Source: an uncultured Chloroflexia bacterium
Lineage (GTDB): Bacteria; Chloroflexota; Limnocylindria; Limnocylindrales; CSP1-4
Length of the DNA stretch: 64,000 bases
Reading direction: 5' to 3'
NCBI GenBank assembly: GCA_963720755.1
Contig: CAVRGP010000011.1
Span: 352,001-416,000 of the forward strand
The translations under genes and the position numbers were made by a program. Every line of letters begins with the position of its first letter. Position 1 is the first letter of the stretch. The notes beneath the pieces are model-generated. The model saw nothing but the letters and a program-made list of their open reading frames with translations, was not told the origin of the DNA and ran no database searches. Positions 13 to 49,649 of this stretch are shown here, one piece after another.

Positions 13-197
13 ACCTGGCAGGATGTTCGTGGGCAGCACGTTATGGCTGATGAAACACCTCTGCAGCCGTTGTGACGCGGCGTGCTAACGGCGCTCAGGC
101 TCGGAATCGCCCGGGTTCCGCGGGCGGGGGCCGACGCATGGTCGACTCAACAAACGCAATCAGCCATTACGGGCTCCCGGTGAGAATCCTGCCAGGT
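13..197. repeat. ~185-bp intergenic element with imperfect terminal inverted repeats (copy 1), MITE/REP-like
   Basis: Left end acctggcaggatgttcgtgggcagcacgttatggctgat; reverse complement of right end acctggcaggattctcaccgggagcccgtaatggctgat; related copies at 20829 and 35116. Confidence 0.7.
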
Positions 198-3985: not shown

Positions 3986-4468
3986 TCAGGCCGCCGCCGC
4001 GCCGCCCGGCCGTGGCCCGGGCGTCGTCCGGATCGCAACGGCTCGAGGCTTGACCTTGAGGACGAGACCGCAGTTGGTGCAGGTATCGACGATCGCCGCG
4101 CGACCGAGACCACACATCGGACAGATGACCGCGAGCTCATCACGGCAGCGTTCGCAGCGGACGGTTCCCGACGGGAAGACGAGCGTGTCACGCCGGCAAT
4201 GTGGCAGGCCCACCGGGTAGACCGGCTCGCCGCCAGGTCCCAGCTCCGCCATCCGCGGACCTTCTTCGAAGGCGACCTTCGTCCGTGGCTTGCGGATCAG
4301 GTAGATCACCGTGCCGAGGGCGAGGAAGGTCAGGAACGGCATGACGACGCCGAACAGGACGATGACCGGCAGGAGTCCGATCAGCACTCCCCAATCGGGC
4401 AGGACGAAGACGGACGTGACGTCGAGGATCTGGGTCCAGATCTGGTTCAGCACGTCGACGATATTCAC
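3986..4468 (-). CDS. Membrane protein with C-terminal multi-CxxC zinc ribbon
   Basis: N-terminal hydrophobic segment; CRRD, CERC, CPMC, CTNC; TAGGAT box 6 nt upstream of GTG. Confidence 0.7.
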   Translation of the reverse strand: MNIVDVLNQIWTQILDVTSVFVLPDWGVLIGLLPVIVLFGVVMPFLTFLALGTVIYLIRKPRTKVAFEEGPRMAELGPGGEPVYPVGLPHCRRDTLVFPSGTVRCERCRDELAVICPMCGLGRAAIVDTCTNCGLVLKVKPRAVAIRTTPGPRPGGAAAA

Positions 4469-5122: not shown

Positions 5123-5971
5123 ATGGGTCTCCTCCTGCTGGTCGATCTTGATGGCGTCGTCTATCGCGGCTCCGACCCGGTCCCGGGTGTCGCTGCGGTC
5201 CTCGCCGATCGGGCCTCGCGCGGCGATGACATCGTCTACGTCACGAACAACTCGATGCACTATCGGGCCGACTACCAGACTCGTCTCGCCGCGATGGGAG
5301 CGCCGGTCTCGCCGGACACGGTCGTGTCGTCGGCGCGGGCGACGGCCACCTACTTGCGCGACCACGATCCGGGGATCCGCCGGGTGCTCGTCCTTGGCGG
5401 CGGCGGGTTGGAGCGGGAGTTGCGCGACGTCGGCTATGACGTCGTGACCTCGGCCGCGGCCGCCACGCGGATGAGCCAGGAATCGGTCGATGGGTTCGTG
5501 GCGGCCGGCCGGCCCGACGCGGTCGTCGTCGGTCTCGATCCCAACTTGACCTATGCGCGGCTGGTCGTCGCGTCCGATTCGATCCGCGCGGGCGCGCACT
5601 TCATCGCGACGAACCGGGACCCGGTCTACCCCACGGAACGCGGACTTCGGCCCGGCGCGGGATCGATCGTCATCGCCCTGGAGGCAGCGACCGGGGTCGT
5701 GCCCGTGTCGATCGGCAAGCCTGCCCCGTACCTGCTCGAAGCGGCGGCGCGTGCGGTCGGGCGCGAGCCGGCCGAGGCGATCATGGTGGGTGACGGGATC
5801 GCGACCGATCTGGCCGGCGCCCACGCGGTCGGGGCGCGCTGCATCTTCATGCTGACCGGGGTCACGACCCGGGCCGAAGTGGCGGCCCTCCCGTCCGAAC
5901 AGCAGCCGACCGCGATCGCCGCCGATGCCGCGGGATTGGCGGCAGCGCTCGAACAGCTCGACGCGAGCTGA
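5123..5971 (+). CDS. HAD-IIA family hydrolase (NagD-like)
   Basis: DLDGV motif I, VTNNS, ATNRD, GKP, MVGDGIATD. Confidence 0.92.
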   Translation: MGLLLLVDLDGVVYRGSDPVPGVAAVLADRASRGDDIVYVTNNSMHYRADYQTRLAAMGAPVSPDTVVSSARATATYLRDHDPGIRRVLVLGGGGLERELRDVGYDVVTSAAAATRMSQESVDGFVAAGRPDAVVVGLDPNLTYARLVVASDSIRAGAHFIATNRDPVYPTERGLRPGAGSIVIALEAATGVVPVSIGKPAPYLLEAAARAVGREPAEAIMVGDGIATDLAGAHAVGARCIFMLTGVTTRAEVAALPSEQQPTAIAADAAGLAAALEQLDAS

Positions 5972-5980
5972 GCCGCGACG

Positions 5981-7054
5981 CTATCGGCCGGTCGCCGGCT
6001 CGTCGAGTCCCGGGATACCCACGGCCCATGCCGAGAACTCGGCCCGCAGTCGGGCGAGCACGTCGTCATCCGCGAATGCGACATCGAGCGCCCGGCGATC
6101 GACGGCCCACAGTTCGGGCAGGCTCAGGCCGATCGCCCCGATCGCGCGGAGATACTCGTCGGACAGGCTGATGTCCGAGACGGTCGTATCGTCCGTGCTC
6201 AGGGTCACCGAGACGCCCGCACGATGCAGACGCGCGAGCGGATGCGCCTCGACGGACTCGACGATCCCGGCCTGGTAGTTCGAGGTCGGGCAGAGGTCCA
6301 GGGTGATGCCTCGGGCGATCAGCTCCACGCACAGGTCCGGGTCGTCGACGGCGCCCGGTCCGTGGGCGATCCGTTCCGGTTCGACCTCCAGTGCGCGTCG
6401 GACCTGGGCGGCCCCGCCCCATTCCCCGGCGTGGATCGTGATCCGCAGCCCGCCGGCCCTGGCGGCCCCGAACGCCGCTGCGTGGGTGAGGGGGTCCGGG
6501 AACGCCGCCTCCGGACCGGCGAGGTCCCAGCCGGTCAGGCCCTGGTCGCGGAACCGGCTGGCCGTCCGCGCGAGCCGGAGGTTCGCGTCGGGGTCATGTG
6601 AGCGGAGGGCGGTACAGATCAGGCGCACGACGGTCCCGGTTCGCGCCGCGGCCTCGTTCGCGCCCCGACACACGGCCCCGATCCCGGCATCGAGCGACAG
6701 ACCCTTCGCCACGTGGAGCAACGGACCCCAGCGGATCTCGATGTACCGGACCCCATCGGCGGCCTTCGTCTCGACCAACTCCGCCGCGACCCGCTCCAAC
6801 GCCTCGGCGTCCTGAAGCAGGGCGATCGGCAGGTCGAAGGCGCGCAGGAGTTCGGCCTGGTTCGCACACGGCATCGGGGCGATGAGCGCGGCGGACATCG
6901 CGGCCCGGTCCACTGGGGCATCGACGGCTCGGGTGCGTGCGAGCTCGACGGCGGTGTCGACCCGGAGCGAGCCATCGAGATGCAGGTGGAGCTCGGCCTT
7001 GGGCATCGCCTCGACGACGCGGTGGAGTGGCAGGGCGGTCGCGGGGTCGGTCAC
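5981..7054 (-). CDS. add: Adenosine deaminase family protein
   Basis: PKAELHLHLDGS, HAGE, RIAHG, CPTSN, STDD motifs; start GTG 7054 inferred from TAGCAT box 7 nt upstream. Confidence 0.9.
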   Translation of the reverse strand: MTDPATALPLHRVVEAMPKAELHLHLDGSLRVDTAVELARTRAVDAPVDRAAMSAALIAPMPCANQAELLRAFDLPIALLQDAEALERVAAELVETKAADGVRYIEIRWGPLLHVAKGLSLDAGIGAVCRGANEAAARTGTVVRLICTALRSHDPDANLRLARTASRFRDQGLTGWDLAGPEAAFPDPLTHAAAFGAARAGGLRITIHAGEWGGAAQVRRALEVEPERIAHGPGAVDDPDLCVELIARGITLDLCPTSNYQAGIVESVEAHPLARLHRAGVSVTLSTDDTTVSDISLSDEYLRAIGAIGLSLPELWAVDRRALDVAFADDDVLARLRAEFSAWAVGIPGLDEPATGR

Positions 7055-19383: not shown

Positions 19384-20499
19384 TCAGGTGGCGACCGCGG
19401 CGTCCGGGGCCAGGGTCAGCCCGGTCTCACCATCGAACAGGTGGAGCTTGTCGAGTGGGATGGTGAGGGTGACGATATCGTCCGTTTTGACCCGGTGCTC
19501 CGAGGAGACGATCGCGACGACGTCGCGGTCGGCGGCCGTGACGTGCAGGAGCTCCTCGTTGCCGAGATACTCGACCACGTCGGCTCGGGTCCGGAATGCG
19601 CCGACGCCGCTGCTCTCCTCGCCGATGTCGAGATGCTCCGGACGGAACCCGGCGACCAGGGTCTTGCCCTCGCGAGGAGTCGCCGTCTCGCGATATTGCG
19701 GCGGCAACGGGATGGACCAATCGGCCGGTCCCACCAGCCGGGCGCCCTCGCCGCTCCCCTCCATGTGGACCTCGACGAAGTTCATCGACGGACTGCCGAT
19801 GAAGCCAGCGACGAACCGGTTGATCGGCTTGTCGTACAGCGCCTGGGGCGACCCGACCTGCTGGAGCAGGCCCTCGTTCATGACCGCGATCCGCGTGCCC
19901 ATGGTCATCGCCTCGATCTGATCGTGGGTCACGTACACCATCGTCGTCTTGAGGCGCTGGTGCAGCCGGGCGATCTCCGCCCGCGTCTGGACGCGGAGCT
20001 TGGCGTCGAGGTTGGACAGCGGTTCGTCCATGAGGAACACCGCCGGTTCCCGGACGATCGCGCGTCCGAGGGCGACGCGCTGACGCTGGCCACCGGACAG
20101 CTCCTTCGGCTTGCGGTCGAGCAGCTTCTGGAGCTGGATGGTCTCGGCGGCCTCGTTGACCCGCCGCTCGATGTCGGCCTTGGGGACCTTGCGCAGCTTG
20201 AGGCCGAAGGCGAGGTTGTCCCGGACCGTCATGTGGGGATAGAGGGCGTAGCTCTGGAAGACCATCGCGATATCGCGATCCTTCGGCGGCACGTCGTTGA
20301 CGACCCGGTCGCCGATCTTGAGGGTGCCTTCGGAGATCTCCTCGAGGCCCGCGATCATCCGTAGACTGGTCGTCTTGCCGCAGCCGGATGGCCCGACCAG
20401 GACCATGAACTCGCCGTCGCCGATCTCGAGGTTGAGATCCCGCACGGCGTGGAAATCGCCGAACACCTTGTTGACGTTTTCGAACGTCACGGTCGCCAT
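19384..20499 (-). CDS. Carbohydrate ABC transporter ATP-binding protein (MsiK/MalK/UgpC-like), standalone
   Basis: GPSGCGKT, FQSYALYPH, LSGGQRQR, DEPLSNLDAKLR, C-terminal TOBE; GAGGTGG RBS. Confidence 0.94.
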   Translation of the reverse strand: MATVTFENVNKVFGDFHAVRDLNLEIGDGEFMVLVGPSGCGKTTSLRMIAGLEEISEGTLKIGDRVVNDVPPKDRDIAMVFQSYALYPHMTVRDNLAFGLKLRKVPKADIERRVNEAAETIQLQKLLDRKPKELSGGQRQRVALGRAIVREPAVFLMDEPLSNLDAKLRVQTRAEIARLHQRLKTTMVYVTHDQIEAMTMGTRIAVMNEGLLQQVGSPQALYDKPINRFVAGFIGSPSMNFVEVHMEGSGEGARLVGPADWSIPLPPQYRETATPREGKTLVAGFRPEHLDIGEESSGVGAFRTRADVVEYLGNEELLHVTAADRDVVAIVSSEHRVKTDDIVTLTIPLDKLHLFDGETGLTLAPDAAVAT

Positions 20500-20667
20500 G
20501 GCACCACCTCGCATCCCCGCCCGACCATCGCGGGCCCATGCATCCAGTCGGCGAAGCGAGCGTGGACGGGCCCCATACGTGGACGGATCAGGGTCTCGCC
20601 ATCGTACGAGGGTCCATACCGAGGCGCAAGCCGGAGTTCCTGCCGCGGCCGGCCGAGGCCGGGCCAT

Positions 20668-20834
20668 GCCCGACCTGGCCCGGCCTGGCTCCGGCCCGGC
20701 TCCGACCTGACGCCGGCCCGGCTCCGACCTGGATCCGGCCCGGCTCCGACCTGGGCACGACCTGGCCCGGCCCGACCTGACGCAGGCCCGGCCCCGACCT
20801 GGATCCGGCCCGACCCGGCGCCGGCCCGACCTGG
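20668..20834. repeat. Degenerate tandem array with ~22-bp unit ccggcccggctccgacctg
   Basis: cgacc(t/c)g at 20671, 20703, 20725, 20747, 20758, 20773, 20795, 20811, 20827. Confidence 0.8.
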
Positions 20835-21013
20835 CGAAATTCTCCTGGGTGGACCGTTGTGCGAGATCCACGAGCAGAACGCGGGTCGCGAGGGCTTCGA
20901 CACCAGTTCTGCACGGCGACGCCGAGCGTGATTGACCGATTCCGTCTCGCCACATACCCCGCCGACACGCGGGAAGATGTCATAGCGGTCCATGCGTGAA
21001 AGATCCGCCAGGT
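20829..21013. repeat. ~185-bp TIR element (copy 2)
   Basis: Left acctggcgaaattctcctgggtggaccgttgtg; reverse complement of right end acctggcggatctttcacgcatggaccgctatg. Confidence 0.65.
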
Positions 21014-21039
21014 TGCCGACGGACGTCCTGCCCAGGTCG

Positions 21040-21531
21040 TCAGCCGGACGGCGGGTACGGCTCGGGGGCGCCCTCGAGCGAAACCGTGCCCGCGCTGTCC
21101 GCGCGGACGGGCACCCAGAGGACCGTGTCGTCTCGGAGGAACAAGACCACGTAGCCCTCGTTGATCCCGAGGGAGAGCGCGCAGAAGTAGCCAGGCGGGC
21201 AGTAGCGGCCGTAGTGGAACGCGATCCGAAGGATGGGTGGACCGTCCGCCGGAAGCGCGGCGACGGCAGCTTCGATCGCGTTCTCACAGGTGAGCGTCCC
21301 GGTCGGCTCCGTGGAGGGCGAGCCGCCGAGGGGTCCGATGACTGGGCCAGAGCCGCAGACGATCTCCGGCGTCGGGCTCGGGGCGGGCGTCGGCCCGGCG
21401 GTCGGACTCGGGGTCGTGCTACGTGTCGGGACAGGCGCGCGGGCCACGCTTGCCGTGGGCGTAGGCACCGGGCTCGCACAGGCCGCCACGATCAGCCCGA
21501 TCGTCATCAGGACTCCTCGTGGCGAAGTCAT
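21040..21531 (-). CDS. Hypothetical Pro/Thr-rich lipoprotein
   Basis: Lipobox VAAC, PT-rich linker, Cys-containing C-terminal domain (YCPPGYFC). Confidence 0.65.
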   Translation of the reverse strand: MTSPRGVLMTIGLIVAACASPVPTPTASVARAPVPTRSTTPSPTAGPTPAPSPTPEIVCGSGPVIGPLGGSPSTEPTGTLTCENAIEAAVAALPADGPPILRIAFHYGRYCPPGYFCALSLGINEGYVVLFLRDDTVLWVPVRADSAGTVSLEGAPEPYPPSG

Positions 21532-21779
21532 CAGCCTACCTCCGGGTGATCGCCCGATCCTGCCACGAGTTTACCGAGCTCATGACGGGGACTCCCTGAC
21601 TCGACGGCGCCGATGGTCCGAGCTGACCCGCGACGACCACCATGTCGCAAGCGCACCACAGGGCGCTTCGCCAGGTCCTCACGGACGACCGGCGACCGGC
21701 GCGGTTGCAGGCGATCCACGCTTCGTTGAGCGTCGATCCACGACACGAAACGCGCCAGGCGCCCTCAGATGCGGGGAGT

Positions 21780-21855
21780 TGGGGTGGCCTACGGGTTTCG
21801 AACCCGCAACCTTCGGAGCCACAATCCGATGCTCTGCCGTTGAGCTAAGGCCACC
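21780..21855 (-). tRNA. tRNA-His (GUG)
   Basis: Acceptor stem GTGGCCT/AGGCCAC with G-1 and C73, anticodon arm tcgga-ttGTGgc-tccga, T-loop GTTCGAA, encoded CCA. Confidence 0.97.
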
Positions 21856-22151
21856 ATGGAGACACTCGTCCTGGCGGTCCGCCGACCGGCGGTCCACCCG
21901 AGCCACGGCAGTATAGCGGGACGGCTCCAGGCGACGGCCAGCGCCGCCGCGATCGCGATGCGGACCTCGTCCAGACCGGACCGGACCATACCAGACCGTC
22001 GCGGACAGGCCCGGACCCCACAGGACCGGACGGTACCTGTGAACCAGACCGCACCTGACCATCGCACCCCGGACATCGGCGCTGGTCGCGCCTACGTTGA
22101 CGTAGACACCGACCGATCGGTTCGGAACGCCCCGGGGAGCACCACGCCTGC

Positions 22152-23066
22152 ATGTCCATCACCGTCGAGCCCCACGCCAGCCAGCAGGCCCTGCGGCCGC
22201 CTGCCGATCGGTTTCGGTCGATGCGCCGGATCACGCTCGCGGTCGCCCTCCTCTTCGGCATCAGTTCGGCGCTCGCGCTTGCCGCCCCGCCTGGTGCCTT
22301 TGCCTGGAGTTCCGGCTCGTATAGCTCCTCATCCGAGTCGGAACTCGTCGCGCTGACCAATCGTGCCCGGGCCAACGCCGGGCTGAAGTCCCTGAAGGTC
22401 GACTCGACCCTCCGCTCGGTCGCCCGATGGCGAAGCAAGGACATGATCGAGCGCGACTACTTCGCCCACGAGATCCCGGGCTACGGTATGGTCTTCGACA
22501 AGCTCCACGCGATCGGCTATTGCTACAAGGTCGCCGGCGAGAACATCGGCTGGAACAATTACCCGGACGACTCGGCCACGGCCGAGATCGAGACGATGTT
22601 CATGGGCTCGCCGGGGCATCGAGCGAACATCCTCGGCAAGACCTGGGATGTGATCGGGATCGGCGCCTACAAGGGCGCCGACGGCAAGAAGATGTGGACC
22701 GTCCTGTTCGCAGACAAGTGCGGTTCGACCGGCGGCAGCGCCCCCAAGGCGACCCCGAAGCCGCAGCCGAAGGCGACCCCCAGGCCGGTCACGCGATCGA
22801 CACCGAAGCCCACCCCGAAACCGACCCGGCGCCCGACCCCGGCACCAACGGCGACGCCGACACCGACCCCCGAGCTCGTGCTGCCCGAGACCCTGGACAC
22901 GCCGAGTCCGTTACCGACACCGACACCGAGCCCGTCCCCGTCGGTGTCGCCCGAGCCCGAGATCGGAACGAATCCCGTCGGCATGCGCGTCGTCGATCCT
23001 GGGGCGGCCGGTGGGCTGCTCGAGACGATCGTCGGTGGCGTGGCCGGCTACTTCTTCGGAGGCTGA
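22152..23066 (+). CDS. CAP (SCP) domain secreted protein with PT-rich tail
   Basis: [34 protein letters not shown]. Confidence 0.88.
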
Positions 23067-23071
23067 ACACC

Positions 23072-23893
23072 GTGATCGTCGAGCGAACTGCGCCGATCGT
23101 CGCCGCACCCGCGCCGATCCCCGCACCCCCAGCCGACCTGCCACCGCCGATCCTCGAGGCCCACGGCCTGACCCGGGTCTATCGCCTCGGACAGACGACG
23201 GTCGAGGCCCTCAGGGACGTCTCCATGTCTGTCCAGGCTGGTGAGTTCGTGGCCCTCATGGGGCCATCGGGCTCGGGTAAATCGACCTTGCTCCAGGTCC
23301 TCGGCGGGCTGGATCGACCGACGACCGGCGAGGTCATCCTCGAGGGTCAGCGAATCGGCGCTCTCGATGACGACCAGGCGACCCGGCTTCGCCGGGATCG
23401 GACCGGGTTCGTCTTCCAGTCGTTCAACCTCATCCCGCTGCTCGACGTCACCGAGAACGTCGCCCTGCCGTTCACCATCGCCGGCGAGGATCCATCGAAG
23501 GGTGCCCTCCGCGAGCGGATCCAGGACGTCATCGACCTCGTCGATCTGACCGGCAAGGAACGCCACCGACCGGATCAGTTGTCAGCCGGCGAGCAGCAGC
23601 GGGTCGCCATCGCTCGCGCGCTCGTCACTCGTCCAGCCCTGTTGTTCGCGGACGAACCGACCGGCAATCTCGACTATTCGACGAGCACGGAGATCCTCGA
23701 CGCGCTGTGGCGCTCGTGCACCGAGCGTGGGCAGACCATCGTCCTGGTCACACACGACTCCAAGGCGGCCGCCTATGCCGATCGGGTCCTCGTCGTCAGC
23801 GATGGCCGGATCCGCGACACGATCGAGCTGGGCCGCAGGACCAGCCATGACGCGACGCCGCTGATCTCACGTCTCGCCCAGCTCGGCCTGTAG
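23072..23893 (+). CDS. ABC transporter ATP-binding protein (LolD/MacB family)
   Basis: [35 protein letters not shown]. Confidence 0.92.
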
Positions 23894-23903
23894 GGGTCGA
23901 CTC

Positions 23904-26423
23904 GTGGCCCTCCGCCGGCTTGCCCTGCGCAGCCTCCGAGCCCGGCCGATGCGAACGGGGGCGAGCATCATCGCGGTCGCCCTCGGGGTCGCCGTCCTGT
24001 TCGCCGGACTGGCGACTGAAGCGGGTATCGCGTCGTCGGTCGACGAGGCCGTCCGCGCCCAGATCGGCCGCGCCGACCTTCGGGTCGCGGCCTTCGACGA
24101 GACGGGTCTGTCCCCCTCGACGGTCGCCACGATCGCGACGACGCCCGGGGTCGACGAGGCGGCCCCGGTGTTCGAGCAGCGGATCTATCTCGGCCAGACC
24201 GGCGACAAGACGACGCTGCCCGCCCCCGTGACGATCCTGGGTATCGACCCTTCGATCGATCCGATCGTGCACGACCTGATGCTCGGATCGGGAACATCAC
24301 TGACCGACCCGAACGCGCCGTTCGCGCTCATCTCGGAACGACTGGCTCGCGAAGACGGTCTGTCACTCGGGTCGCAGGTGTCGATGCAGGGCGCTGGCGA
24401 CCGGGTCGTCTATCGCGTGGTCGGGATCCTGGCGGGTGACGGCTCGTTGGCCGGCACGCTCGGACGGACCGTTGTCGTGCCCCTCGCGACCGCCCAGGCC
24501 GTGTTCGGGACGTCCGGCGTCGATCGGGTCGATATCCTCGTCAGCCGGGGAGCGGACGCGAACATCGTCTCTGCCTCCCTCGAGTCCCGACTGTCGGGCG
24601 AACCGTACGTCCTCTCGACGCCACACGACCTGGCGGCCGGACTTCGAGCGTCGACGAACGAATTCCTGCTCACGACCGGGCTCATCGCAGCCGTGGCCCT
24701 GTTCTCGGGTGCATTCCTCATCTTCAATGCGTTGTCGATGACGGTCTCGGAGCGGGTCCGCGAGATCGGCCTGCTGCGAGCCGCCGGAGCGAGCCGTGGC
24801 CAGGTCATGTCGTTCATGCTTGCCCAGGCGCTCGTCATCGGCGTCGTCGGATCGCTGGCGGGCCTGCTGGTCGGCGGACTCCTGGCGGCGGCGATGGTGG
24901 CGGCCGTCGGGACGGTCGGTTCGGTGGCGCTCCACTGGCCCGGTCTGCCGCTCGACGCCATGGCCGCAGCCCTGCTGGTCGGTATCGGCGTCACGCTTGC
25001 CGCCGCGCTCGGACCGGCCCGTCGGGCGAGCCGGATCCAACCGGTCGAGGCACTCAAGACCCGGTTCGACGCACGATCCGTGCGCGGCACCCGGCTGCGC
25101 TGGCTCGCGGCGATCTTCGTCGTGATCGCGCTCGCCGGGGTCGTCTTCGTGCCACGAGTCACTGGCGGGACCGGCGCGGTCGGTTCACTTGCCGTGTACG
25201 GGATCCTGCTGCTGACCACCCTGCTCATCCCGGTCGTCCTGCCGGTCATGGCGCGCATCGCCGGGATGCCGTTCCACCTGATCCTTCGCGTCGAGGAGCG
25301 ACTGGCCCGGAGCGCCATCGGTCGGGATCCGAGCCGGACCGCGCTGACCCTCGGCAGCCTGACGGTCGGGCTCGCCATGATCGTCGCCCTGGGCAGTGTC
25401 GGTCAGCACGCCCGAGCGGCCGCGTCCGGCTGGATCGAGGACGTGGTCCCGGGCGGGATCGTCCTGACGTCGATCCGGCCGATCGCACCCGACGAGGACG
25501 TGGCCGGCCAGCTGACCGACGCCGTGCCGGGGATCGATCGGGTCAGTCCGATCGCAACGTTCGACGTCGCCATCACCGGGATCCGGACCGACGCCGCAGC
25601 CGTGGTCGGGTCGGACCTGTCCGCTGACGGCCGCCTGCGGTTCACCGCCGGTGACCGCGAGACGGCCCTCGCCGCGCTCGATACAGGCGGCGCGACGATC
25701 ATCCCGGCGGCGATCGCCGGCCGGTTCGGACTTGCCGTCGGGGATGTGGTGACGCTCCCGACCGCGGACGGAGGATCGCTCGACCTGCGGGTCGTCGGGA
25801 TCGTGGAGCGGTCGCTGCCCGGCAAGACCGGGGAATCGATGCTCATCGGTTGGACCGATGCGATGGACCGCCTCGGCGTTGCGGGGGCCGATGCGTTCGC
25901 GGTCCGGTTCGGATCCGGCGCGGCACCGGCGAACGAGGCGGCCCTCCGGGCCACGGCCGACCTGCTCGCCCTGCAGGTGGTGCCGCTCGATCAGATCGAG
26001 GGCGCGATCAGCGTCGCACTCGAGCGGATCTTCGGCCTGTTCGATGCGCTGGCCCTGGTCGCGGTCCTCATCGCCGCCCTCGGGATCGTCAATACCCTCA
26101 GCATGAACGTCATGGAGCGGGTCCGCGAGATCGGGATCCTGCGCGCCGCCGGCATGAGCCGGAGCCAGGTCTGGCGATCGATCGTCGTCGAGGCCGGTGT
26201 ACTCGGTCTGGCCGGAGCGCTGCTCGGGATCATGGTCGGGCTCGGGATCGGTGCGCTGATGGTCGTCTCGACCGGCGATACTCCCGATCTCGGAACGAGC
26301 GTTCCCTGGGCCATCATCGGGCTCACCCTCGTGATCGGCGTCGGACTGGCGATGCTGGCGGCGGCCTATCCGGCCCGGATCGCCAGCCGACTGTCCATCG
26401 TCCGGGCCGTCCAGTACGAGTGA
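23904..26423 (+). CDS. FtsX/MacB-type ABC permease (duplicated MacB_PCD + FtsX)
   Basis: Two ERVREIG(L/I)LRAAG motifs, two large extracytoplasmic domains, YPARIASRL. Confidence 0.9.
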   Translation: MALRRLALRSLRARPMRTGASIIAVALGVAVLFAGLATEAGIASSVDEAVRAQIGRADLRVAAFDETGLSPSTVATIATTPGVDEAAPVFEQRIYLGQTGDKTTLPAPVTILGIDPSIDPIVHDLMLGSGTSLTDPNAPFALISERLAREDGLSLGSQVSMQGAGDRVVYRVVGILAGDGSLAGTLGRTVVVPLATAQAVFGTSGVDRVDILVSRGADANIVSASLESRLSGEPYVLSTPHDLAAGLRASTNEFLLTTGLIAAVALFSGAFLIFNALSMTVSERVREIGLLRAAGASRGQVMSFMLAQALVIGVVGSLAGLLVGGLLAAAMVAAVGTVGSVALHWPGLPLDAMAAALLVGIGVTLAAALGPARRASRIQPVEALKTRFDARSVRGTRLRWLAAIFVVIALAGVVFVPRVTGGTGAVGSLAVYGILLLTTLLIPVVLPVMARIAGMPFHLILRVEERLARSAIGRDPSRTALTLGSLTVGLAMIVALGSVGQHARAAASGWIEDVVPGGIVLTSIRPIAPDEDVAGQLTDAVPGIDRVSPIATFDVAITGIRTDAAAVVGSDLSADGRLRFTAGDRETALAALDTGGATIIPAAIAGRFGLAVGDVVTLPTADGGSLDLRVVGIVERSLPGKTGESMLIGWTDAMDRLGVAGADAFAVRFGSGAAPANEAALRATADLLALQVVPLDQIEGAISVALERIFGLFDALALVAVLIAALGIVNTLSMNVMERVREIGILRAAGMSRSQVWRSIVVEAGVLGLAGALLGIMVGLGIGALMVVSTGDTPDLGTSVPWAIIGLTLVIGVGLAMLAAAYPARIASRLSIVRAVQYE

Positions 26424-26481
26424 CACGATGCTAGACTCCGGCCGTCGATCGCCACGTCGGTGATCCACCAGTGGAGCCCAG

Positions 26482-27126
26482 ATGTCGCTCGCGATCCCAA
26501 GACTCGACCGCAGCACGATCGCGGATCGCGGCCTCACCATCGCCGACTTCCTCGTCCCCATCCGAGTCGGGGAGCGAGTCAACGCCCGGGTCCGTGACGT
26601 CGCCCTCGTCCTGGCCGGGGCGATCTTCATCTACCTGACCGCGAAGATCAGCCTCCCGGTCCCTGGATCGCCGGTCCCGATCACCGGCCAGACCTTCGGC
26701 GTGCTTCTGGTCGGCGTCTCACTCGGGTTGCGGCGCGGCCTGTTCGCGGTCTCGCTGTACGTGCTGCTGGGCGTCATCGGGCTGCCGTTCTTCGCGGACG
26801 GCAAGGGCGGGCTGGACGTGATCTGGGGCGCCACGGGTGGCTACCTCGTCGGGTTCATCATCGCGGGTGCCGTTGTCGGGCGCCTGGCCGAGCTCGGCTG
26901 GGATCGTCATGTCGGCGGGGCGCTCGGGGCGATGCTCATCGGCAGCGCGATCATCTATGCCGTCGGGTTGCCCTGGCTCCTGGTCGTTCTCGATCTCACC
27001 CCGAGCCAGGTGATCGACAAGGGCCTGACCCCATACCTGCTGGGGGACGCGATCAAGCTCGTGCTCGCGGCGGCGATCTTCCCGGCTGCCTGGTGGCTCG
27101 TGGGGCGACGTCCGGACGATCGCTGA
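26482..27126 (+). CDS. bioY: Biotin transporter BioY
   Basis: VPITGQTF, GLPFFA, TGGYLVGF, IYAVG, GDAIK. Confidence 0.92.
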   Translation: MSLAIPRLDRSTIADRGLTIADFLVPIRVGERVNARVRDVALVLAGAIFIYLTAKISLPVPGSPVPITGQTFGVLLVGVSLGLRRGLFAVSLYVLLGVIGLPFFADGKGGLDVIWGATGGYLVGFIIAGAVVGRLAELGWDRHVGGALGAMLIGSAIIYAVGLPWLLVVLDLTPSQVIDKGLTPYLLGDAIKLVLAAAIFPAAWWLVGRRPDDR

Positions 27127-27128
27127 CG

Positions 27129-27989
27129 ATGGTGGCGCCGGACCCGGGCCTGTTCGGCCCCGCGTCTGAGGCCTGGCGGCTCGACCGCGAGGCGATGCTG
27201 CTGCCGGGTGCCGGGCCCCGCGCGCTCCTGCTCCAGCTCGCCCACCCGCTGGTCGCCGCCGGGGTCGACGAGCATTCGGATTTCCGGTCGGATCCCTGGC
27301 ATCGGCTCGCGGCGACGTTGCGCAGTTACCTGACGATCATCTACGGGACGACGACGGCGGCGCGAGCCGAGATCGGTCGACTCAACCGGCTGCACGGATC
27401 GATCGCCGGACCCGGTTACTCGGCCCGCGATCCGGAGTTGTCCCTGTGGGTGCACGCGACCCTCGTCGACTCCACGATCGTCGCCTACGACGCCTGGCTC
27501 GAGCCGCTGTCGCCAGCCCGGCGGGCGGCCTTCTATGCCGAGACCCTGCCGATCGGCCGGGCGTTCGGGATCCCGGACGGACTGCTTCCAGCGGATCTGG
27601 ACGCGTTCGAGCGATACGTCGCGCTGATGATCGGACCGGGGGGACCGGTCAAGGTCTCGCCGGTCGCGCGAGAACTCGCTGCGGTCGTGCTCCGACCGCC
27701 GTTGGCACCCCTGGCGGCACTGTTCCCATTCGAACGCGCGGCGGGGGACCTCCTCGGGCGAGTGCCACCGGGAACGTACGCGTGGACCCTGTGGCCGGCG
27801 ATCGGGCTTCTCCCTGAGCCGGTCCGAAAGGCGTACCGACTGCCGTGGGGTGTCCGCGAGCGGCTCGTGTCAGCCTGGCTGGTGACCGCCTGGCGGGCGT
27901 GGCGACCGATCGTGCCGCCGGGTTTCCGACAGATGCCGCAGGCGCTCGCCGCCGACCGGCGCGTCGAGGCGGCCGCGGGCCACCTCTAG
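27129..27989 (+). CDS. Oxygenase MpaB family protein (DUF2236)
   Basis: RALLLQLAHP.VAAGVDEHSDF, LNRLH, YSARDPEL.LWVHATL. Confidence 0.85.
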   Translation: MVAPDPGLFGPASEAWRLDREAMLLPGAGPRALLLQLAHPLVAAGVDEHSDFRSDPWHRLAATLRSYLTIIYGTTTAARAEIGRLNRLHGSIAGPGYSARDPELSLWVHATLVDSTIVAYDAWLEPLSPARRAAFYAETLPIGRAFGIPDGLLPADLDAFERYVALMIGPGGPVKVSPVARELAAVVLRPPLAPLAALFPFERAAGDLLGRVPPGTYAWTLWPAIGLLPEPVRKAYRLPWGVRERLVSAWLVTAWRAWRPIVPPGFRQMPQALAADRRVEAAAGHL

Positions 27990-28005
27990 CGGCCGCGGGC
28001 CGCCC

Positions 28006-29370
28006 TCAGTAGAGGCTGGGAAGGCGCTTCGCGAAGAGTCTCGTCCCGAGATCGACCGGGGTCGCCGCGTCAAGGGCGTCGAGCAGCGTCGATGTCGACG
28101 AGATCGCGTTCTGCTGGTCCCGGATGTACCCGCGGAGGGCTGGCCAGAACACGCTCGAGCCCATCAGCCGGCGGGCTCGATCGAGCAGGTTTCCGCCCTG
28201 GATATAGATCCGCTCGTAGTAGCAGGCAGCCGAGTAGCCATAGATGGTCAGATCCAGGCGACCGCTCGAGCATCGGCTGGTGCGGCGCAGCCCCAGCACG
28301 AACCGCGCCGCGAAGTCGGCGGTGGCCTCGTCCGCGAACGGGTCGGCGGCCTGATCGTTCCCGACGATCCCGTAGAACCATTGGTGGGCCGTCTCGTGGG
28401 CGGCCAGGTAGCGAAGGTTCGAGACAGCGACGCCGGTCGGGATCCAGATCAGCGCCGGCGATTCCATCCCGTAGCCGCCGGCTGACTGGACGACCTTGAA
28501 GATGCGGTGGGGATAGGGACCGAGACGACGCTCGAGCGCATCGAAGGCGTCGGCCGCCGCACGGAGCATCGCTTTTCCCGGCCCACCCGGCCGGTAGTAG
28601 ACGCGCACGACCGTGTCGCGGACGACCCGGGACCGCGTCCGATAGTCGGCGGCCGCGGTGACCGTGAAGTCCCGGACGTTCGTCGCCTGGAATGTCTGGC
28701 GGAGCCCGTCGGTACTCCGTGCGGTCCGGCGGCCCGTGGTGGCCAGGACGAGCGGTCTCGAGGTGGTGATCCGGACCGTCACCGACGGGCTGGTCGGAGT
28801 CTCGAATGGATCGCCGTGGTTCGGCCGGGCGAACCTGATCCGGCGGCTCACCCAGGGGAGCCAGCGATAGAGATCGACGACCCCGTTCGCGCGGGTGAAC
28901 AGCCAGTCGGAGCCGGCGACCCCGCTGCGCAGCGTCGCCCGATATCGCAACCGGATGGTCGTCGTCGCACCGATGGGCAGGTCGTGCCCGAGAGGCACGA
29001 CGATCGTCTGGCCCGTGACGGTGACGCCGACCGTGGTCCCGTCGACCGTCGCGGGTCCGAGCACCATCGCGCCGAGCCTGGCCGCGACCGTGTTGAACTC
29101 GATCCTGTCGATCGGACCGCCCCAGGTGTTGCGGACCGTGGCCGAGCTGTCCACCCGGATCGTGCGTGACGCCCAGCCCAGCCGGAGGGACGTGTCGTAC
29201 GTTGCCTCGAGGAACGGGCTGGACCGATCGACCGAAGCGGGTGTGACGGTGGGAACCGGAACGCTTGACGGCACCACCGTCATGGCGTCGCGTGGCCGCA
29301 CGTTCGGCGATGGAGCGCCGAGCGCCCCGACGACGATCGTCAGGCACGCGACGACGATGAGGCGATGCAT
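28006..29370 (-). CDS. Secreted M1-family-like zinc aminopeptidase
   Basis: YGMESP, HETAHQWFYGIVGNDQ..P..DE, YIQG; TACGAT box 7 nt upstream of ATG 29370. Confidence 0.85.
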   Translation of the reverse strand: MHRLIVVACLTIVVGALGAPSPNVRPRDAMTVVPSSVPVPTVTPASVDRSSPFLEATYDTSLRLGWASRTIRVDSSATVRNTWGGPIDRIEFNTVAARLGAMVLGPATVDGTTVGVTVTGQTIVVPLGHDLPIGATTTIRLRYRATLRSGVAGSDWLFTRANGVVDLYRWLPWVSRRIRFARPNHGDPFETPTSPSVTVRITTSRPLVLATTGRRTARSTDGLRQTFQATNVRDFTVTAAADYRTRSRVVRDTVVRVYYRPGGPGKAMLRAAADAFDALERRLGPYPHRIFKVVQSAGGYGMESPALIWIPTGVAVSNLRYLAAHETAHQWFYGIVGNDQAADPFADEATADFAARFVLGLRRTSRCSSGRLDLTIYGYSAACYYERIYIQGGNLLDRARRLMGSSVFWPALRGYIRDQQNAISSTSTLLDALDAATPVDLGTRLFAKRLPSLY

Positions 29371-29534
29371 CGAGCCCATCGTACCCGGACGTCTCCGACC
29401 GGGGCGGGGTTCGGAACGCGCGGCCGGTGACGCGAGTTTGCTAGGATCGCGATCATGCTCGCGCACGTGGGTGGGGCGCGGCTGGACATGACCGTCGGCG
29501 CGGCGGCACAGGTATCAGTCGGGACTCCCAGGAC

Positions 29535-32500
29535 ATGACCATAGCGGGACCGGTGCGTCGGTCGACCTCGGCCGTCACGAAGGCCATCCTAGCGACGCTG
29601 ATCGTCGCCCTCCTGGCGCTGAGCTGCCAGGCGCCACCACCACCGAGTCCGCCCGCAGGTCCGTCCCCATCACCTGCCGTCGCGCTCCCACCGACGAGCC
29701 CGCTCATCGTCAACCTCGATCGGATCGGAGGCGGCACGACCGCGCATCTCGGTTATCCCGTCCCGCTCACGGTCGCGGCACTCGGCATGCGCGGGATCAG
29801 CGCGTTCGAGCTGTGGGCGGGGGGGATCGGGTGGAGTTCACGTCACCTCGCGACCCGAGCCGCCCAGCCGCCACGGCGCGATGGGACTGGATTCCCGCGA
29901 CGACGGGCGATGTCGTTCTCGTGGCCCGCGCGTTCGACTCGACGGGTCACGCCAGTCAGTCGTCCCCGATCAGGATCCACGTCGTCACGGCGCCGCCGGT
30001 GACCTACCGGCTGATCGAGGTCGCCGCGGACGGAGGTGAGAGCCTCGCCTCGATCGTTGCCGCGAATGGCGGTGATCCAAGCGTCGCTTCTTACTGGAAC
30101 GGCGCCCTGCCCGATGATTCGCTCCCCGCGGGGACGACCGTCGCCGTGCCCGTCCGGGACCCGACGCCTCCGCCACCGTCCGCATCGCTCCCGGCGGGCA
30201 CGCCCGGCCTCGCGGACGCAGTGCTCGCCGCAGATCTGGCGCATCCGGTGCCGGCGGGACTCGAGACGCCCTCGCTGGAGCTCACGGTGAAGGGCTGCAC
30301 GATCACCGGCAAGACAACCGGCGGCACGAACGCCACGACCGGCTTTTCCTACTCGGTCTTGCCACCTGCCTCCAATTCCTTCCTGCATCTACCCTCGACT
30401 GGCGGCTCCGGCGGCGGCGCCACGACGACCTTCTATGCGCTCGGCGGAAGGAACTATGTCACCGTGTCCGAGTTCTCACGGGACGCTGGGACGCCCTCGG
30501 CGATCGTGCCCGTCGATGTGCCACGCGAGTGCGGAGCCGGGCGCTGGAGCGGCACGGCGCGCCTCGACGGCGGCCAGCTCGTGACAGACCAGGCCGTTGA
30601 TCGCGCCTACCTGTACCTCAGAGCCGGGGCCGGCGATTGGCAGCGAGTGCCGACGAGCGCAGACTCGTTCGTCGAGGCGACCGACGGTGTCCTGGACTTC
30701 AGGCCGGTCCTCCCCGCGGTCATGAACGCCGATCTCGCCCTCGAAGCGTGGGGATGGCGAGGTGGCACGCTCGTCAACCTGGGGAGCGGGACCTACGTCC
30801 CCCCGGCGGGATCGCTGTACCTTGGCGCCGCCGGCGATGCGGCAAAGCTCGCGGCCGGGCTGGGTACGAGCCTTGACATCCAGATCCACGCAGGGACGCC
30901 GGAATTCCACGAGGTGCTGTCGCGGGATTCGACGATCGATCGTCCTGGCCCGAACTCCACCAGCGCGAGCCGAACGTTCAAGTGGTCGACGACGGACGGG
31001 GGCGTGACGGGTCTCCAGTGGCAGCTCCTGCCGTACCCGGTCACCAATTCGACCGTAACGACCCCACCATTCCTCCTCGACACGGGAACGATCGACGTCC
31101 ACGGCCTCTCGACCGGCACGTTCTCGATCGATCTCAAGCCGTATCTCGGCGGGAAGACAGCCGGGGTCACCTCGGCCAGCGCCTGGGGCCAGAACCAGCT
31201 CATCACCAAGCTCACCCAGATCGCAGCCAGCGAGGCTGCTGGTGGGCCTGCGGCAGCCAGCCAGGTCGTGCTGAACCAGAATGGGATCTGGCGACCCAGT
31301 CCGACGCCAAGCGCCGGATCCGGCGCCATCGGCGGCGGCACCTCCGGCCTGACCATCGGTTCGGCGGACAGCCTCTCGCAACTCCCGCTCACGATCAACG
31401 CCCTGTACCTCCGAGTCATCCCATACGCCGGCACGACCCCGGCCGGCGACGCGTCGAACCTTGTCTCGCTGAAAGTCGTCGAACCGGACGATCCGCTCTA
31501 CTTCGATACGTCCCCGCCGCCACCGGCGCCCATGTACAACGATGCGTACACCCAGCACGCGATCTTCTATGCGCCGACCGGCTCCAACCCCCATGCCTTC
31601 CATTGCGTCCGGGTGGTGAAGGGTGGATTCAGCGTGCCGATCTGGGGTGACTGGACCGACGGGACGACCCACTGCAGGCCTGAGGACGACGGTGGCTGGT
31701 CGCTCTCGGACGCCTTCGAGGCGTTTGTCGACTGGGTCGGCGGCATCTGGGACTGGGTGAGCGACGCCTACGGCTGGGTCGAGGACCAGGTCGTGAACGT
31801 CGTCCTCGCCCTCGTCCCCTGCCAGCAGATCGCCGACCAGGTGTCCGACAGCGGCAAGGAGATCTGCAAGACGATCGCCAAGACCGGACTGCAGGCGGTC
31901 ATGGTGTCGTTCGGGATCCCGCCGGAGATCCCGAACTGGGAGTCCACGATCTCGGCGGCGAAAGGCGACCTCAAGGACTTCGTCCTCGAGAACGCGGACC
32001 AGCTACCAGGTGTCAGCGAAGCCTGCGCCGCGGCCACCGCAGCCCACGCGGCGAAGGGCAGCTTCCCGACGTGCGATGCCCTCGTCGAGAAGGTCATCGC
32101 CGAGGCGACCTCGCGCATCGCCGCACAGCGGAGCAGCGCGGCCGCAGCCAATGCCGGCGTGCTGGTGCCCGATGGGGTCACCGTCGAGCCGGATCCGCGT
32201 GGGATGCCACAGCCGCCCCATTTCGATATCACCCTGACGAGGACGAACGCCGCGCTCCCGACCGGGGTCGACTGCACGATGACCGGGAGCATGACCAGCA
32301 CACTCGACGACTGGAACTGGGACGAGTGGAAGTGGATGAATGGCCGCGGCACGTTCACGACCAAGTCGGGAACCGTCACCGGCGAGCCCTTCACGAGGGT
32401 GACCCAGGACATCGCGCGTCTGGCTCCAGGCGAGTCTGTCACCTATCAGCTTTGGCTCACCAAGAAGACCATGTGGTTCGAACCGGACGGACTCAATGAC

Positions 32501-32653
32501 TTCTATGCCAAGCAATACGCCCTGGGCAACGGGGATATCAACCACGATTGGGTCCTGCTGCAGAAGGGCGCAACCGTCGTGGGTCGCCTCGCCGGCAATT
32601 GCATCCCCGGTGGCACACTCACGCAAGTGCTCGACGGGCAGGCATCAGATTGA
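29535..32653 (+). pseudogene. Large lipoprotein (Ig-like and LysM-like domains plus unknown C-terminus), split by a frameshift in a G7 run at 29819-29825
   Basis: ORF 29535 has lipobox LALSC and ends sensibly at ELWAGG; adding one G joins it to DRVEF...WDWIP...VARAFD of ORF 29813-32653. Confidence 0.7.
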
Positions 32654-33447
32654 CGCTGCGACGCTCGCTCCTGATCGCGGCCCTGATGGTTTCCGTGGCG
32701 CTGGCGAGCACGAGTCTGGCCGCGGCCGCGACCAAACCGTCAGCCTGGATCGACGAGCCCCTGCCCGGGGCCGTGCTTGAACTTGGTCAGATCCGCGTGA
32801 CCGTCCATGCTGCCGATCGCGGCGGGATCGCGAACGTGCGCTTCCTCGTGGATGGCAACGATGCCGCGACGATCGCGGCCCCCGAGGGCGATTTGGTCAC
32901 CGTCCCATGGATGTGGGCCTCCCCGACGCCCGGCCAGCATATGATCACGATCCTGGCTGCGGCCAGCGGCGGTTCCACGTCGGATCCCGCATCTGTCGCC
33001 GTCACGATCGAGGGTCCGCCGGTAGCGTCTCCTTCTCCCGTCCCGACCCCGACGCTTGCCCCGACACCGATCCCGACGCCCAAACCGACCCCGAGGCCGA
33101 CCGCGAAACCGACGCCGGCGCCCTGCACACCGCCGATGCCCGACAGGCTGAACCCGACGGACTTCTTCCTGGTGCAGGCATCGGCGAACCCACCCACAGT
33201 CAGGTGGGCGTACGGAACGCCACCCGCCTGTGCCCCGAGCGGTTTCCGCGTCTCCATCGTGGATTCGCCATCAACGGGATACAGCGTCACGTCAGGCGTT
33301 CTGCCAGCGACCGCGGAATCGTGGACTCCGCCGGCCGCACTGCCGATCACGCCCAGCTGCCTGAACTACCAATGGACCTTCGACGTGCTTCGCTCGGACG
33401 GCTCGGTCGGTCAGACGGTGAGCCGCACCTTGGCTGCCTGCCCCTGA
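32650..33447 (+). CDS. Secreted Ig-like-domain protein with PT-rich linker
   Basis: TTG overlapping upstream TGA, signal peptide, WIDEPL..VRFLVDG..W..P.PG.H.I pattern of bacterial Ig-like domains. Confidence 0.7.
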   Translation: MTLRRSLLIAALMVSVALASTSLAAAATKPSAWIDEPLPGAVLELGQIRVTVHAADRGGIANVRFLVDGNDAATIAAPEGDLVTVPWMWASPTPGQHMITILAAASGGSTSDPASVAVTIEGPPVASPSPVPTPTLAPTPIPTPKPTPRPTAKPTPAPCTPPMPDRLNPTDFFLVQASANPPTVRWAYGTPPACAPSGFRVSIVDSPSTGYSVTSGVLPATAESWTPPAALPITPSCLNYQWTFDVLRSDGSVGQTVSRTLAACP

Positions 33448-33534
33448 CCGGAGTTCGGCCAGGCCGCGACCCTGTCGAAGTCGACCTCATGGATCCCGGG
33501 CCTTCCCGTCCGGCCGCCAAGTAGACTTCGCGGA

Positions 33535-34923
33535 GTGACGACCGATATCGCCTCGGATCCGCTGGTCGCGGCGATCCGCGCCCGGCTGCCGGCCACGCGA
33601 CTCCTGACCGAGCCGCTCGATCGCGAGAGCTACCGACTCGACGAGACGGCCTACCTGCACGCCGGGTTGCCCGGTGCCGTCGCGTTCCCAACGACGACCG
33701 GGGAGGTCGTCGAGCTGGTGCGCATCGCCGCCGAGCTTCGCATCCCGATCGTTCCTCGAGGTGCCGGGACCGGCCTTTCGGGTGGCGCGGCCGGCATCGA
33801 GGGTGCCCTCACCGTCGCCTTCACTGCGATGGACAAGATCGTCGAGATCGATCGCGAGAACCTGGTGGCGGTCGTCCAGCCCGGGGTCATCAACGCCGAC
33901 CTCAAGGCCGCGGTCGCCGCGCATGGGTTGTTCTACCCACCCGACCCGGCCAGCTTCGAGCTGTGCTCGATCGGCGGCAATCTGGGCACCAATGCCGGCG
34001 GCCTGTGCTGCGTGAAGTACGGACAGACGCGCGAATCCGTCCTCTCGCTCGAGGTGGTCATGGCCGACGGGGCCGTGATCCGGACCGGTGGCCGGAACAT
34101 CAAGGACGTGGCCGGGTACGCGCTGACCCACCTGTTCGTGGGCAGCCAGGGGACGCTCGCGATCACGACCGAGGCGACCCTCAAGCTCCGGCCGGCGCCG
34201 CCCCCGCGCCTGACCATGCTGGCCTTCTTCCCGACGCTCGAATCGGCGGGCGATGCGGTCGCGGCGATCGCCGCCGCGGGCCTCACCCCGGTGACCCTCG
34301 AGTTGCTCGATCGGTTCACGATCGCGGCCGTCGACGACATGAACGACCTGGGCCTGGATCGCTCCGCTGCGGCGATGCTGATGATCGAGTCGGACATGCC
34401 GGGCGTCGCGGCGACCGCGGAGCTCGAGTTGGCCGATACGGCCTGCCGTGGGGCTGGTGCCACCGATGTCGTCCGGGCCGCCGATGCCCAGGAAGCCGAC
34501 TGGCTGCGGCAGGCGCGCCGGGCGGCCCACTACGCCCTCGAACGGCTCGGCGATGTCCGGATGGAGGATGTCGGGGTACCCCGGTCGCGCGTCCCGGAGA
34601 TGCTTCGGGAGATCGAGCGCATCGCTGCCCGGCACGACGTCCGGATCGGGACATTCGGGCACGTGGGTGACGGCAACCTCCACCCGGATCTGGTCTTCGA
34701 TCGCGATGACCCCACGGCCGAGGCGAAGACCGAGGCGGTCAAGAGGGACCTCTATCGGGCGGCGCTCGACCTGGGCGGCACGGTCACCGGGGAGCACGGC
34801 ATCGGCAGCGCGCGACGCGAATGGCTGGAGATCCAGCGTGGCCCGGATGCGGTCCGGGTGATGCGCGCGATCAAGTCGGCCCTGGACCCGCTGGGGATCC
34901 TCAACCCGGGGCGCGTCCTCTAG
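33535..34923 (+). CDS. glcD: FAD-linked oxidase, glycolate oxidase GlcD-like
   Basis: PRGAGTGLSGG, YPPDPAS, TNAGG.CCVKYG, GSQGTL, HVGDGNLH, GEHGIG, LNPG. Confidence 0.85.
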   Translation: MTTDIASDPLVAAIRARLPATRLLTEPLDRESYRLDETAYLHAGLPGAVAFPTTTGEVVELVRIAAELRIPIVPRGAGTGLSGGAAGIEGALTVAFTAMDKIVEIDRENLVAVVQPGVINADLKAAVAAHGLFYPPDPASFELCSIGGNLGTNAGGLCCVKYGQTRESVLSLEVVMADGAVIRTGGRNIKDVAGYALTHLFVGSQGTLAITTEATLKLRPAPPPRLTMLAFFPTLESAGDAVAAIAAAGLTPVTLELLDRFTIAAVDDMNDLGLDRSAAAMLMIESDMPGVAATAELELADTACRGAGATDVVRAADAQEADWLRQARRAAHYALERLGDVRMEDVGVPRSRVPEMLREIERIAARHDVRIGTFGHVGDGNLHPDLVFDRDDPTAEAKTEAVKRDLYRAALDLGGTVTGEHGIGSARREWLEIQRGPDAVRVMRAIKSALDPLGILNPGRVL

Positions 34924-35041
34924 CCGAGGTCGGGCCGGCCCGAGCCCCTCGCCCGGGCCACGATTGACGGTCCGGCTCTCATGCGAGCGGGTCGCCGATC
35001 CGGGCCAAGGATTCAGTCACGTCCCTCGTGCGGTCAAGTTG

Positions 35042-35133
35042 CCTGGCAGGACGCCGAGGCAGGCTACCTGGCAGAACATCGACGCAGGCTACCTGGCAGG
35101 ACGCCGAGGCAGGCTACCTGGCAGAACGTTCAC
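35042..35133. repeat. 25-bp-period tandem repeat gcaggctacctggcagRac
   Basis: Units at 35042 (partial), 35059, 35084, 35109, alternating ggacgccgag / gaac tails. Confidence 0.9.
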
Positions 35134-35291: not shown

Positions 35292-35310
35292 TGGGTCGCG
35301 CCGGATCCTC

Positions 35311-35431: not shown

Positions 35432-35436
35432 CGCGG

Positions 35437-35506: not shown

Positions 35507-35515
35507 AGACGGCCG

Positions 35516-49646: not shown

Positions 49647-49649
49647 GCC

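Follow-up and report, generated by a model that had tools for sequence, protein, structure and literature searches.

Short non-coding elements bounded by inverted bipartite motifs form a dispersed family in high-GC Chloroflexia genomes

Three intergenic segments of 176-185 bp within a 64-kb stretch of DNA (the window, meaning the whole stretch that was analysed) belong to a family of short, dispersed, non-coding elements. Every element carries two inverted copies of a 36-nt bipartite motif with the consensus ACCTGGCAGGATTCTCAC-N6-GGACCGTTATGGC, in which a spacer of six variable nucleotides separates box A (ACCTGGCAGGATTCTCAC) from box B (GGACCGTTATGGC). The two motif copies are 80-115 nt apart, and the sequence between them is largely free. 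A further nine elements, 151-187 bp long and with both ends present, were detected in other genomes, for a total of 12 elements, 11 of which are independent. We lean towards regarding them as an old family of non-autonomous MITE-like DNA elements, the ends of which are putative protein-binding sites.

The window is 69% G+C and has the content of an ordinary chromosome, including genes for ABC transporters, peptidases, purine catabolism, and Ku/LigD. Re-reading of the sequence returned the coordinates and lengths of the three copies as they had been given in the preliminary description, and its statement that each copy starts with ACCTGGC and ends with GCCAGGT, followed by TG, was also correct. 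The trailing TG, present in 3/3 window copies, was found in only two of the nine related copies. Copy 1 (positions 13-197, 185 bp, no strand assigned; arms 13-52 and 158-197) is located 53 nt downstream of the stop codon of a minus-strand ABC ATPase gene (250-1227). Copy 2 (20829-21013, 185 bp, plus strand; arms 20829-20868 and 20974-21013), which has the central motif GAGCGTGA at 20924-20931, has a lipoprotein-like ORF (21040-21531, minus strand) on one side, at a distance of 27 nt, and a malK-III leader and malK-like gene on the other. Copy 3 (35116-35291, 176 bp, minus strand; arms 35116-35155 and 35252-35291) has the central motif GAGCGTGG on the minus strand at 35188-35195; its neighbors are an FAD oxidase gene (33535-34923, plus strand), which ends 193 nt away, and a SorC-type regulator gene (35516-36484, plus strand). 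A location just past the 3′ end of a gene, as had been proposed, therefore describes the three window copies and is not a family rule, since two of the related elements (L003a and L003b) lie between divergent genes. In the vicinity of copy 2, a malK-III RNA motif (Rfam RF03009, 76.1 bits) was detected at 20497-20592 on the minus strand, upstream of the MalK-type ABC ATPase gene (about 19384-20481, minus strand); copy 2 and its tandem array are positioned about 240 nt further upstream of this RNA motif. The sole tRNA gene of the window, tRNA-His (GTG) at 21780-21854 on the minus strand, is located about 770 nt to the right of copy 2.

The six window ends were found to align without gaps over 45 nt, and all 24 ends of the 12 elements fit a single consensus of 36-40 nt in which end positions 5-7, 16, 24, 27, and 33 are invariant (22/22 ends). 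That the six ends resemble one another was borne out when the 11 independent elements (the three window copies and eight from the relatives) were compared: on average, about 26 of 40 positions agree between the ends of different elements, compared with 11.5 ± 3.0 for random 40-mers of the window. The sequence ACCTGGCRG was observed 14 times in the window while 1.29 occurrences were expected, a count reached by none of 100 shuffles; five of the sites are element ends, two are in the tandem array beside copy 3, and three further sites that were inspected (49346, 49384, and 62925) fall in coding regions. Furthermore, a profile built from eight ends, all from other genomes and none selected by the search pattern, recovered exactly the six window ends (E-values 1.7e-6 to 3.4e-3), with the next match at an E-value of 8.5. 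The preliminary description also had the two ends of each copy imperfectly complementary to one another. This complementarity is good only for copy 1 (39-nt arms, 79% complementary); the ends of copies 2 and 3 have 25/40 positions in common and were not reported as an inverted pair by the repeat search, so that a motif present twice in inverted orientation describes these two copies better than a hairpin does. The identity of ends within a copy was 27.2/40 compared with 25.9/40 across copies (permutation p 0.043). The ends are conserved towards a common consensus and not by pairing. Except for a 9-nt segment (CCTGGCAGG), they are without self-complementarity, and no GTAG or CGTC tag was found in them.

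Relatives were identified by scanning genome contigs with one degenerate 33-nt pattern, which yielded 53 loci. Eight of these (L003, with two elements, L012, L020, L021, L029, L046, L051, and L052) were found to carry a second, inverted end 151-187 bp away. The other 45 loci, from many phyla, had a lone pattern match with no partner end and are taken as chance matches, with the rough chance expectation for a pattern of such information content being about 25 matches. Of the partner ends outside its own selection, the pattern matched only about 1 in 10; therefore, most copies are missed by the scan. All eight loci belong to four metagenome-assembled genomes (MAGs) titled Chloroflexia or Thermomicrobiales (CAWGNI01, CAWDFY01, CAWKJL01, and SPCO01), which are 68-73% G+C. 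With three copies in the window, five loci in one related MAG, and four copies in three other MAGs, the family was found only in a few soil, high-GC Chloroflexia (Thermomicrobiales-like) genomes among the 53 scanned loci and the window. The L029 locus, from the five-locus MAG, was 87.5% identical to window positions 29172-41119 over 12 kb, so the window comes from a close relative of this MAG, and the L029 element is the ortholog of copy 3. When copy 1, copy 3, and the L052 element were used as blastn queries against a plasmid collection, no match was detected at E ≤ 0.01; at E ≤ 10, 16 records had short interior matches and none matched the ends. In full-text searches of the literature, no element of this kind was found described for Chloroflexi or Thermomicrobia. 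The term undescribed, as applied earlier to these segments, can thus be kept with respect to the sources compared, namely Rfam 15, the plasmid collection, and the full-text literature.

The elements fall into length classes of 151 bp (two copies), 175-176 bp (four copies), and 184-187 bp (six copies). They are non-coding, as the ORFs that overlap them have neither the GC3 signature of the genome nor a Pfam match. The interiors are diverged, as had been noted, with global alignment scores near chance (mean z of 0.75 for forward and 0.72 for reverse comparisons); a z of 2.8-3.8 was reached by five of the 55 interior pairs, and the copies concerned share GAGCGTGG. This central motif was detected within one mismatch at element position 96-97 in copies 2 and 3 and in L029, L051, and L052, and at position 85 in L021. 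The motif serves to orient the element, and the resulting orientation is inconsistent relative to the neighboring genes. The L052 and L021 elements are in different MAGs and have different left-flank genes, yet have subfamily-specific end variants in common and can be aligned along their whole length; therefore, whole elements have been copied. The proposal that selection acts on the ends and their spacing fits the data in that (i) unascertained partner ends were recognizable at 8/8 loci; (ii) the length classes are narrow; and (iii) copy 3 is conserved in place.

This conservation was determined by comparing copy 3 with its ortholog, which differs from it by a 1-nt indel and at 17/175 sites (5/80 in the arms and 12/95 in the interior). 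By comparison, 157/495 of the 4-fold sites of the two flanking genes (Fisher p 1.8e-9) and 78/341 sites of the adjacent intergenic DNA (Fisher p 1.9e-4) were found to differ, such that the divergence of copy 3 is about 3-fold below that of the neighboring 4-fold sites in this one ortholog pair, at a locus where divergence varies along its length (29813-33534 is only 6-11% diverged). The interior of copy 3 alone was also less diverged than the 4-fold sites (p 1e-4), and no significant difference was detected between arms and interior (p 0.20). A MITE that is neutral and dead would not be expected to be conserved in place in this way, which hints at a role at the level of the host. Conserved ends and drifting interiors are consistent with a slowly moving lineage, since movement needs only the ends; such a lineage would not explain conservation of the whole of copy 3, which may leave room for a role retained by the host, as in REPIN/RAYT systems.

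Tandem arrays that include the terminus were found to span 7/22 element boundaries (TRF score of at least 30), which were the left boundaries of copies 2 and 3, L012, L021, and L052 and the right boundaries of L020 and L052. For a position drawn at random, the probability of being no more than 15 nt from an array is 0.066 (binomial p 3.9e-4 for 7/22), and the boundary arrays have periods of 9-16, 25, and 81 nt. At copy 2, an array at 20670-20836 with periods of 11, 16, and 22, whose units contain CCGACCTGGC, runs into the left terminus. At copy 3, an array at 35042-35128 is composed of 3.5 copies of a 25-nt unit made up of 11 nt of flank and the first 14 nt of the element; about 1.5 units are present in L029 compared with the 3.5 in the window. 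A second array (35310-35432; period 34, 3.8 units), located 19 nt to the right of copy 3, excludes the terminus, is strongly diverged, and has a different length in the ortholog; whether it is part of the element is uncertain. All three intergenic arrays of the window with a TRF score of at least 50 adjoin copies 2 and 3. An 81-nt tandem duplication was also observed at L021:5976-6130, comprising flank and the first ~50 nt of the element, with an orphan second left end at 6001. By eye, an inverted copy of the terminus was also apparent in the flanks of L020 and L012. A stricter test, which required the terminal 8-mer (≤1 mismatch) within 60 nt of flank and was superseded by the TRF-based boundary test, identified 3/21 flanks compared with 0.62 expected. 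These boundary duplications suggest that nicking, breakage, or fork stalling may recur at the termini. Genes for Ku and for LigD (phosphoesterase and ligase domains) were found side by side at 61520-63998 of the window; therefore, the organism has non-homologous end joining, which could bear on the repair of breaks at element boundaries.

The neighbors of the elements are unrelated housekeeping genes. The intergenic regions are between tandem genes for copies 2 and 3, L051, and L052; between divergent genes for L003a and L003b; and between convergent genes for L012 and L046. A regulon reading, in which the elements would be near the genes of one pathway, was rejected because the neighboring genes are unrelated. 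Consistent with the preliminary description, neither a transposase nor a clear target-site duplication was found in the window or the flanks. No transposase, recombinase, or HUH protein was detected among 127 ORF scans, 74 of the window and 53 of the flanks of the eight loci (51 distinct ORFs, two of which were rescanned against NCBIfam instead of Pfam), and no cognate autonomous element or transposase was present in the window and the eight loci, about 90 kb in all. The search for longer copies enclosing a gene was likewise negative in this material. For target-site duplications, no consistent direct repeat of 3-11 nt was detected at 81 boundary offsets in the 12 copies; the strongest candidates were a 6-mer of L052 and, at the same offset, a 5-7-mer of copy 1, both within chance for 81 offset combinations per copy. 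As the copies are old, a duplication could be hidden by decay. The sole ortholog pair (copy 3 and L029) has the element in both genomes, with no empty site; therefore, we infer mobility from dispersal alone.

As a terminal inverted repeat can be mistaken for a conserved stem, signals specific to pairing were tested. A structured non-coding RNA family, in which the two arms would form the closing stem of a long hairpin, had been raised in the preliminary description. Such a family would be consistent with whole elements folding somewhat better than shuffles (z -3.3, -2.2, and -2.6), with the pairing of 76.6% of arm cells compared with 74.2% in shuffles, and with two-sided arm changes in 28 cells compared with 17.9 ± 3.1 after shuffling (0/500 shuffles reach 28). 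This last excess could be due to pairing or, equally, to subfamilies and an ortholog pair counted twice, as the alignment includes one ortholog pair and two same-lineage copies, which can give such an excess. The remaining signals are counter to an RNA stem. RNAalifold predicted terminal stems only, with a covariation term of -0.16 kcal/mol, and thus provided no covariation of the RNA type; 5-10 of the 12 sequences lack pairing at positions 17-23; and the folding of the interiors of 11 copies was comparable to that of dinucleotide shuffles for both strands (mean z -0.03 and -0.19). Mismatches were counted in 67 arm cells (20 G-T, 14 A-C, and 33 others), with no strand bias or excess of wobble pairs, and the orientation of the elements is inconsistent with respect to neighboring genes. 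No Rfam match to the elements was detected, either at the gathering score or at E ≤ 5, with the malK-III RNA and the tRNA, both outside the elements, being the sole credible Rfam matches in the window. Our conclusion is that the ends represent sites at the level of DNA, as opposed to an RNA stem, and we consider a hairpin RNA family to be highly improbable.

Among readings that place the signal in DNA, the ends could be targets at which a master site-specific recombinase inverts the interior of ~100 nt and thereby switches a neighboring gene. Invertons are intergenic segments of ~150-200 bp bounded by inverted repeats that share a consensus and are acted upon by a shared recombinase, and the family is similar to them in its common inverted repeats, near-constant length of 150-190 bp, intergenic location, and asymmetric interior that occurs in both orientations with respect to the window strand; the invertible promoters of Bacteroides are of similar size. 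However, a scan of 20400-35700 for sigma-70 promoters and intrinsic terminators, which for promoters covers the sigma-70 type only, detected nothing inside copies 2 and 3, and the only promoter-like site (35437-35465) is outside copy 3, beside the regulator gene. Two of the 11 independent elements (L012 and L046) are located between convergent genes and would have nothing to drive, the sole ortholog pair is collinear and in the same orientation, and no recombinase was found nearby. In addition, the 36-40-nt bipartite ends are longer than typical invertase sites. Overall, these data render DNA inversion very unlikely. By-eye comparison with known consensus sequences also indicated a poor fit to a sigma-54 promoter, an attC site, a tyrosine-recombinase core site, and a tRNA-derived end, and these four candidates were set aside.

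A partnership between the elements and an enzyme retained by the host, of the REPIN/RAYT or TIRtron/TIRYT type, was also considered. The motif pairs would in this case be maintained sites of a single-copy, vertically inherited nuclease or transposase-derived protein and not the remains of a selfish transposon. The conservation of copy 3 in place, about 3-fold greater than that of neutral sites, and the retention of ends while interiors drift would be consistent with such a partnership, and a candidate enzyme is weakly indicated at L003. At this locus, elements at 4203-4353 and 5883-6033 bracket a 1.5-kb gene pair, and both elements and genes lie between nrdJ-like and ROK genes. The first gene of the pair (L003:4391-5116, plus strand), which starts 38 nt from an element end, encodes a protein with an XRE helix-turn-helix (HTH) domain (Pfam HTH_3, E 1.2e-13) and a PD-(D/E)XK-like domain; the second (L003:5133-5684, minus strand) is a 183-aa ORF of no known family. 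In the C-terminal domain of the XRE protein, D117, E132, and K134 were invariant in 33/33 aligned homologs. Its structural model (mean pLDDT 85.7) was matched by Foldseek to the Shedu nuclease SduA (E 5.3e-4) and the restriction endonuclease PfoI (E 6.3e-4) at low TM-scores of 0.27-0.28, while a PDB sequence search with the alignment of this protein returned matches to the HTH domain only. PADLOC likewise gave HTH-only matches for the first protein and none for the second. The XRE protein has 3797 relatives at E ≤ 1e-5, many of them 65-86% identical, and its atlas clusters are mostly Chloroflexota. However, the adjacency of gene and element was observed at one locus only, and tblastn of both L003 proteins against the window and all 53 loci returned self matches only, with no homolog of the XRE protein in the window or the other 52 loci. 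Furthermore, the ends lack the self-palindromic form of REP-like hairpins, an HUH protein was not detected, and the in-place conservation is that of one ortholog pair. A retained partnership is thus viewed as a tentative and rather unlikely alternative. More specifically, and with even less probability, the 36-nt ends may be operator or cleavage sites of the vertically inherited Chloroflexota XRE HTH and PD-(D/E)XK nuclease-like protein. If so, the family would represent a long-term partnership similar to REPIN/RAYT with a restriction-endonuclease-fold enzyme in place of the HUH transposase. The tandem duplications across the boundaries would then be explained by repeated nicking at the termini, which contain CCWGG, and the conservation in place by a benefit to the host.

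The reading that we favor, an old family of non-autonomous MITE-like elements, is based on the elements being short, non-coding, and dispersed in multiple copies in unrelated intergenic DNA of several genomes, with terminal inverted repeats of bipartite structure in all copies. The earlier MITE/REPIN-like designation is therefore the best-supported description. No REP stem-loop, HUH protein, or fixed-length target-site duplication was found in the 12 copies and the other material examined. The copies are dispersed, and we infer a mechanism in which both ends would be recognized by a single DNA-binding enzyme acting in trans, either a transposase or a domesticated relative, that brings the ends together. 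Such a protein may in the past have carried the element to intergenic regions unrelated to one another. Most copies would now be static and vertically inherited, and kept intact at least at one locus, while breaks, nicks, or stalled replication would recur at the element boundaries and give rise to the short tandem duplications that include the terminus.

Among known systems, the bacterial MITEs Correia/NEMIS (of Neisseria), RUP, ERIC, and Nezha are 70-300 bp in length with terminal inverted repeats of 15-30 bp and no coding capacity (PMC3733652). The elements of the present family resemble bacterial MITEs in being 151-187 bp, non-coding, intergenic, and dispersed; they also have terminal inverted repeats and lack their own transposase. 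Counter to Correia/NEMIS, RUP, ERIC, and Nezha, the family has longer, bipartite ends of 36-40 nt, a target-site duplication was not detected, the interiors of paralogs are almost fully diverged, tandem duplications span the boundaries, and the host belongs to another phylum. MITEs of this type occur in tens of dispersed copies. The Correia elements have a central IHF site, of which the conserved central motif of the family is reminiscent, and orthologous copies of ERIC are retained, as for copy 3. To our knowledge, the family has no cognate IS. The REPIN/RAYT and TIRtron/TIRYT systems, described together with TIR families around RAYT-like genes (PMC3733652), are similar to the family in having inverted motif pairs dispersed in intergenic DNA, long persistence at fixed loci, and a gene bracketed by repeat units, as at L003. 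These systems differ in that the motif of the family has neither a self-complementary REP stem-loop nor a GTAG or CGTC tag, no HUH tyrosine transposase was found, and the motif copies are spaced by about 100 nt instead of a few nt. Compared with the Tn3-derived TIMEs, the outer box of the family is ACCTGGC and not GGGG, no 5-bp duplication was found, and no Tn3-type transposase or resolvase was seen. These Tn3-family-derived miniature elements and other IS-derived MITEs have bipartite inverted repeats of ~38 bp in which one conserved box is outer and the other inner. In the family, the box on the inner side is CCGTTATG, which loosely recalls the ACGYTAAG box of Tn3-family ends.

Short repeat families are poorly cataloged in the Chloroflexota, most of which are uncultured, and a defined end motif provides a marker for this soil lineage as well as a handle for finding the transposase or binding protein. 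Two features of the family are unusual, namely the purifying selection on a copy in place and the terminus-spanning duplications at a third of the boundaries, and the family could on this basis exemplify a mobile-element remnant captured by the host; if the two features fail in more genomes, it would be an ordinary old MITE family.

Two other regions of the window were of note. The tract at 29813-33534, which has low divergence from L029 (0.114 at 4-fold sites and 0.059 in intergenic DNA, compared with 0.27-0.46 for the genes to the right), encodes a 946-aa ORF with no Pfam match and a Big_7-domain ORF, and may be a recent recombination tract or unusually constrained. A purine-degradation cluster at 46822-53494 was found to include genes for xanthine dehydrogenase subunits, OHCU decarboxylase, uricase, and malate synthase, with amidohydrolases nearby.
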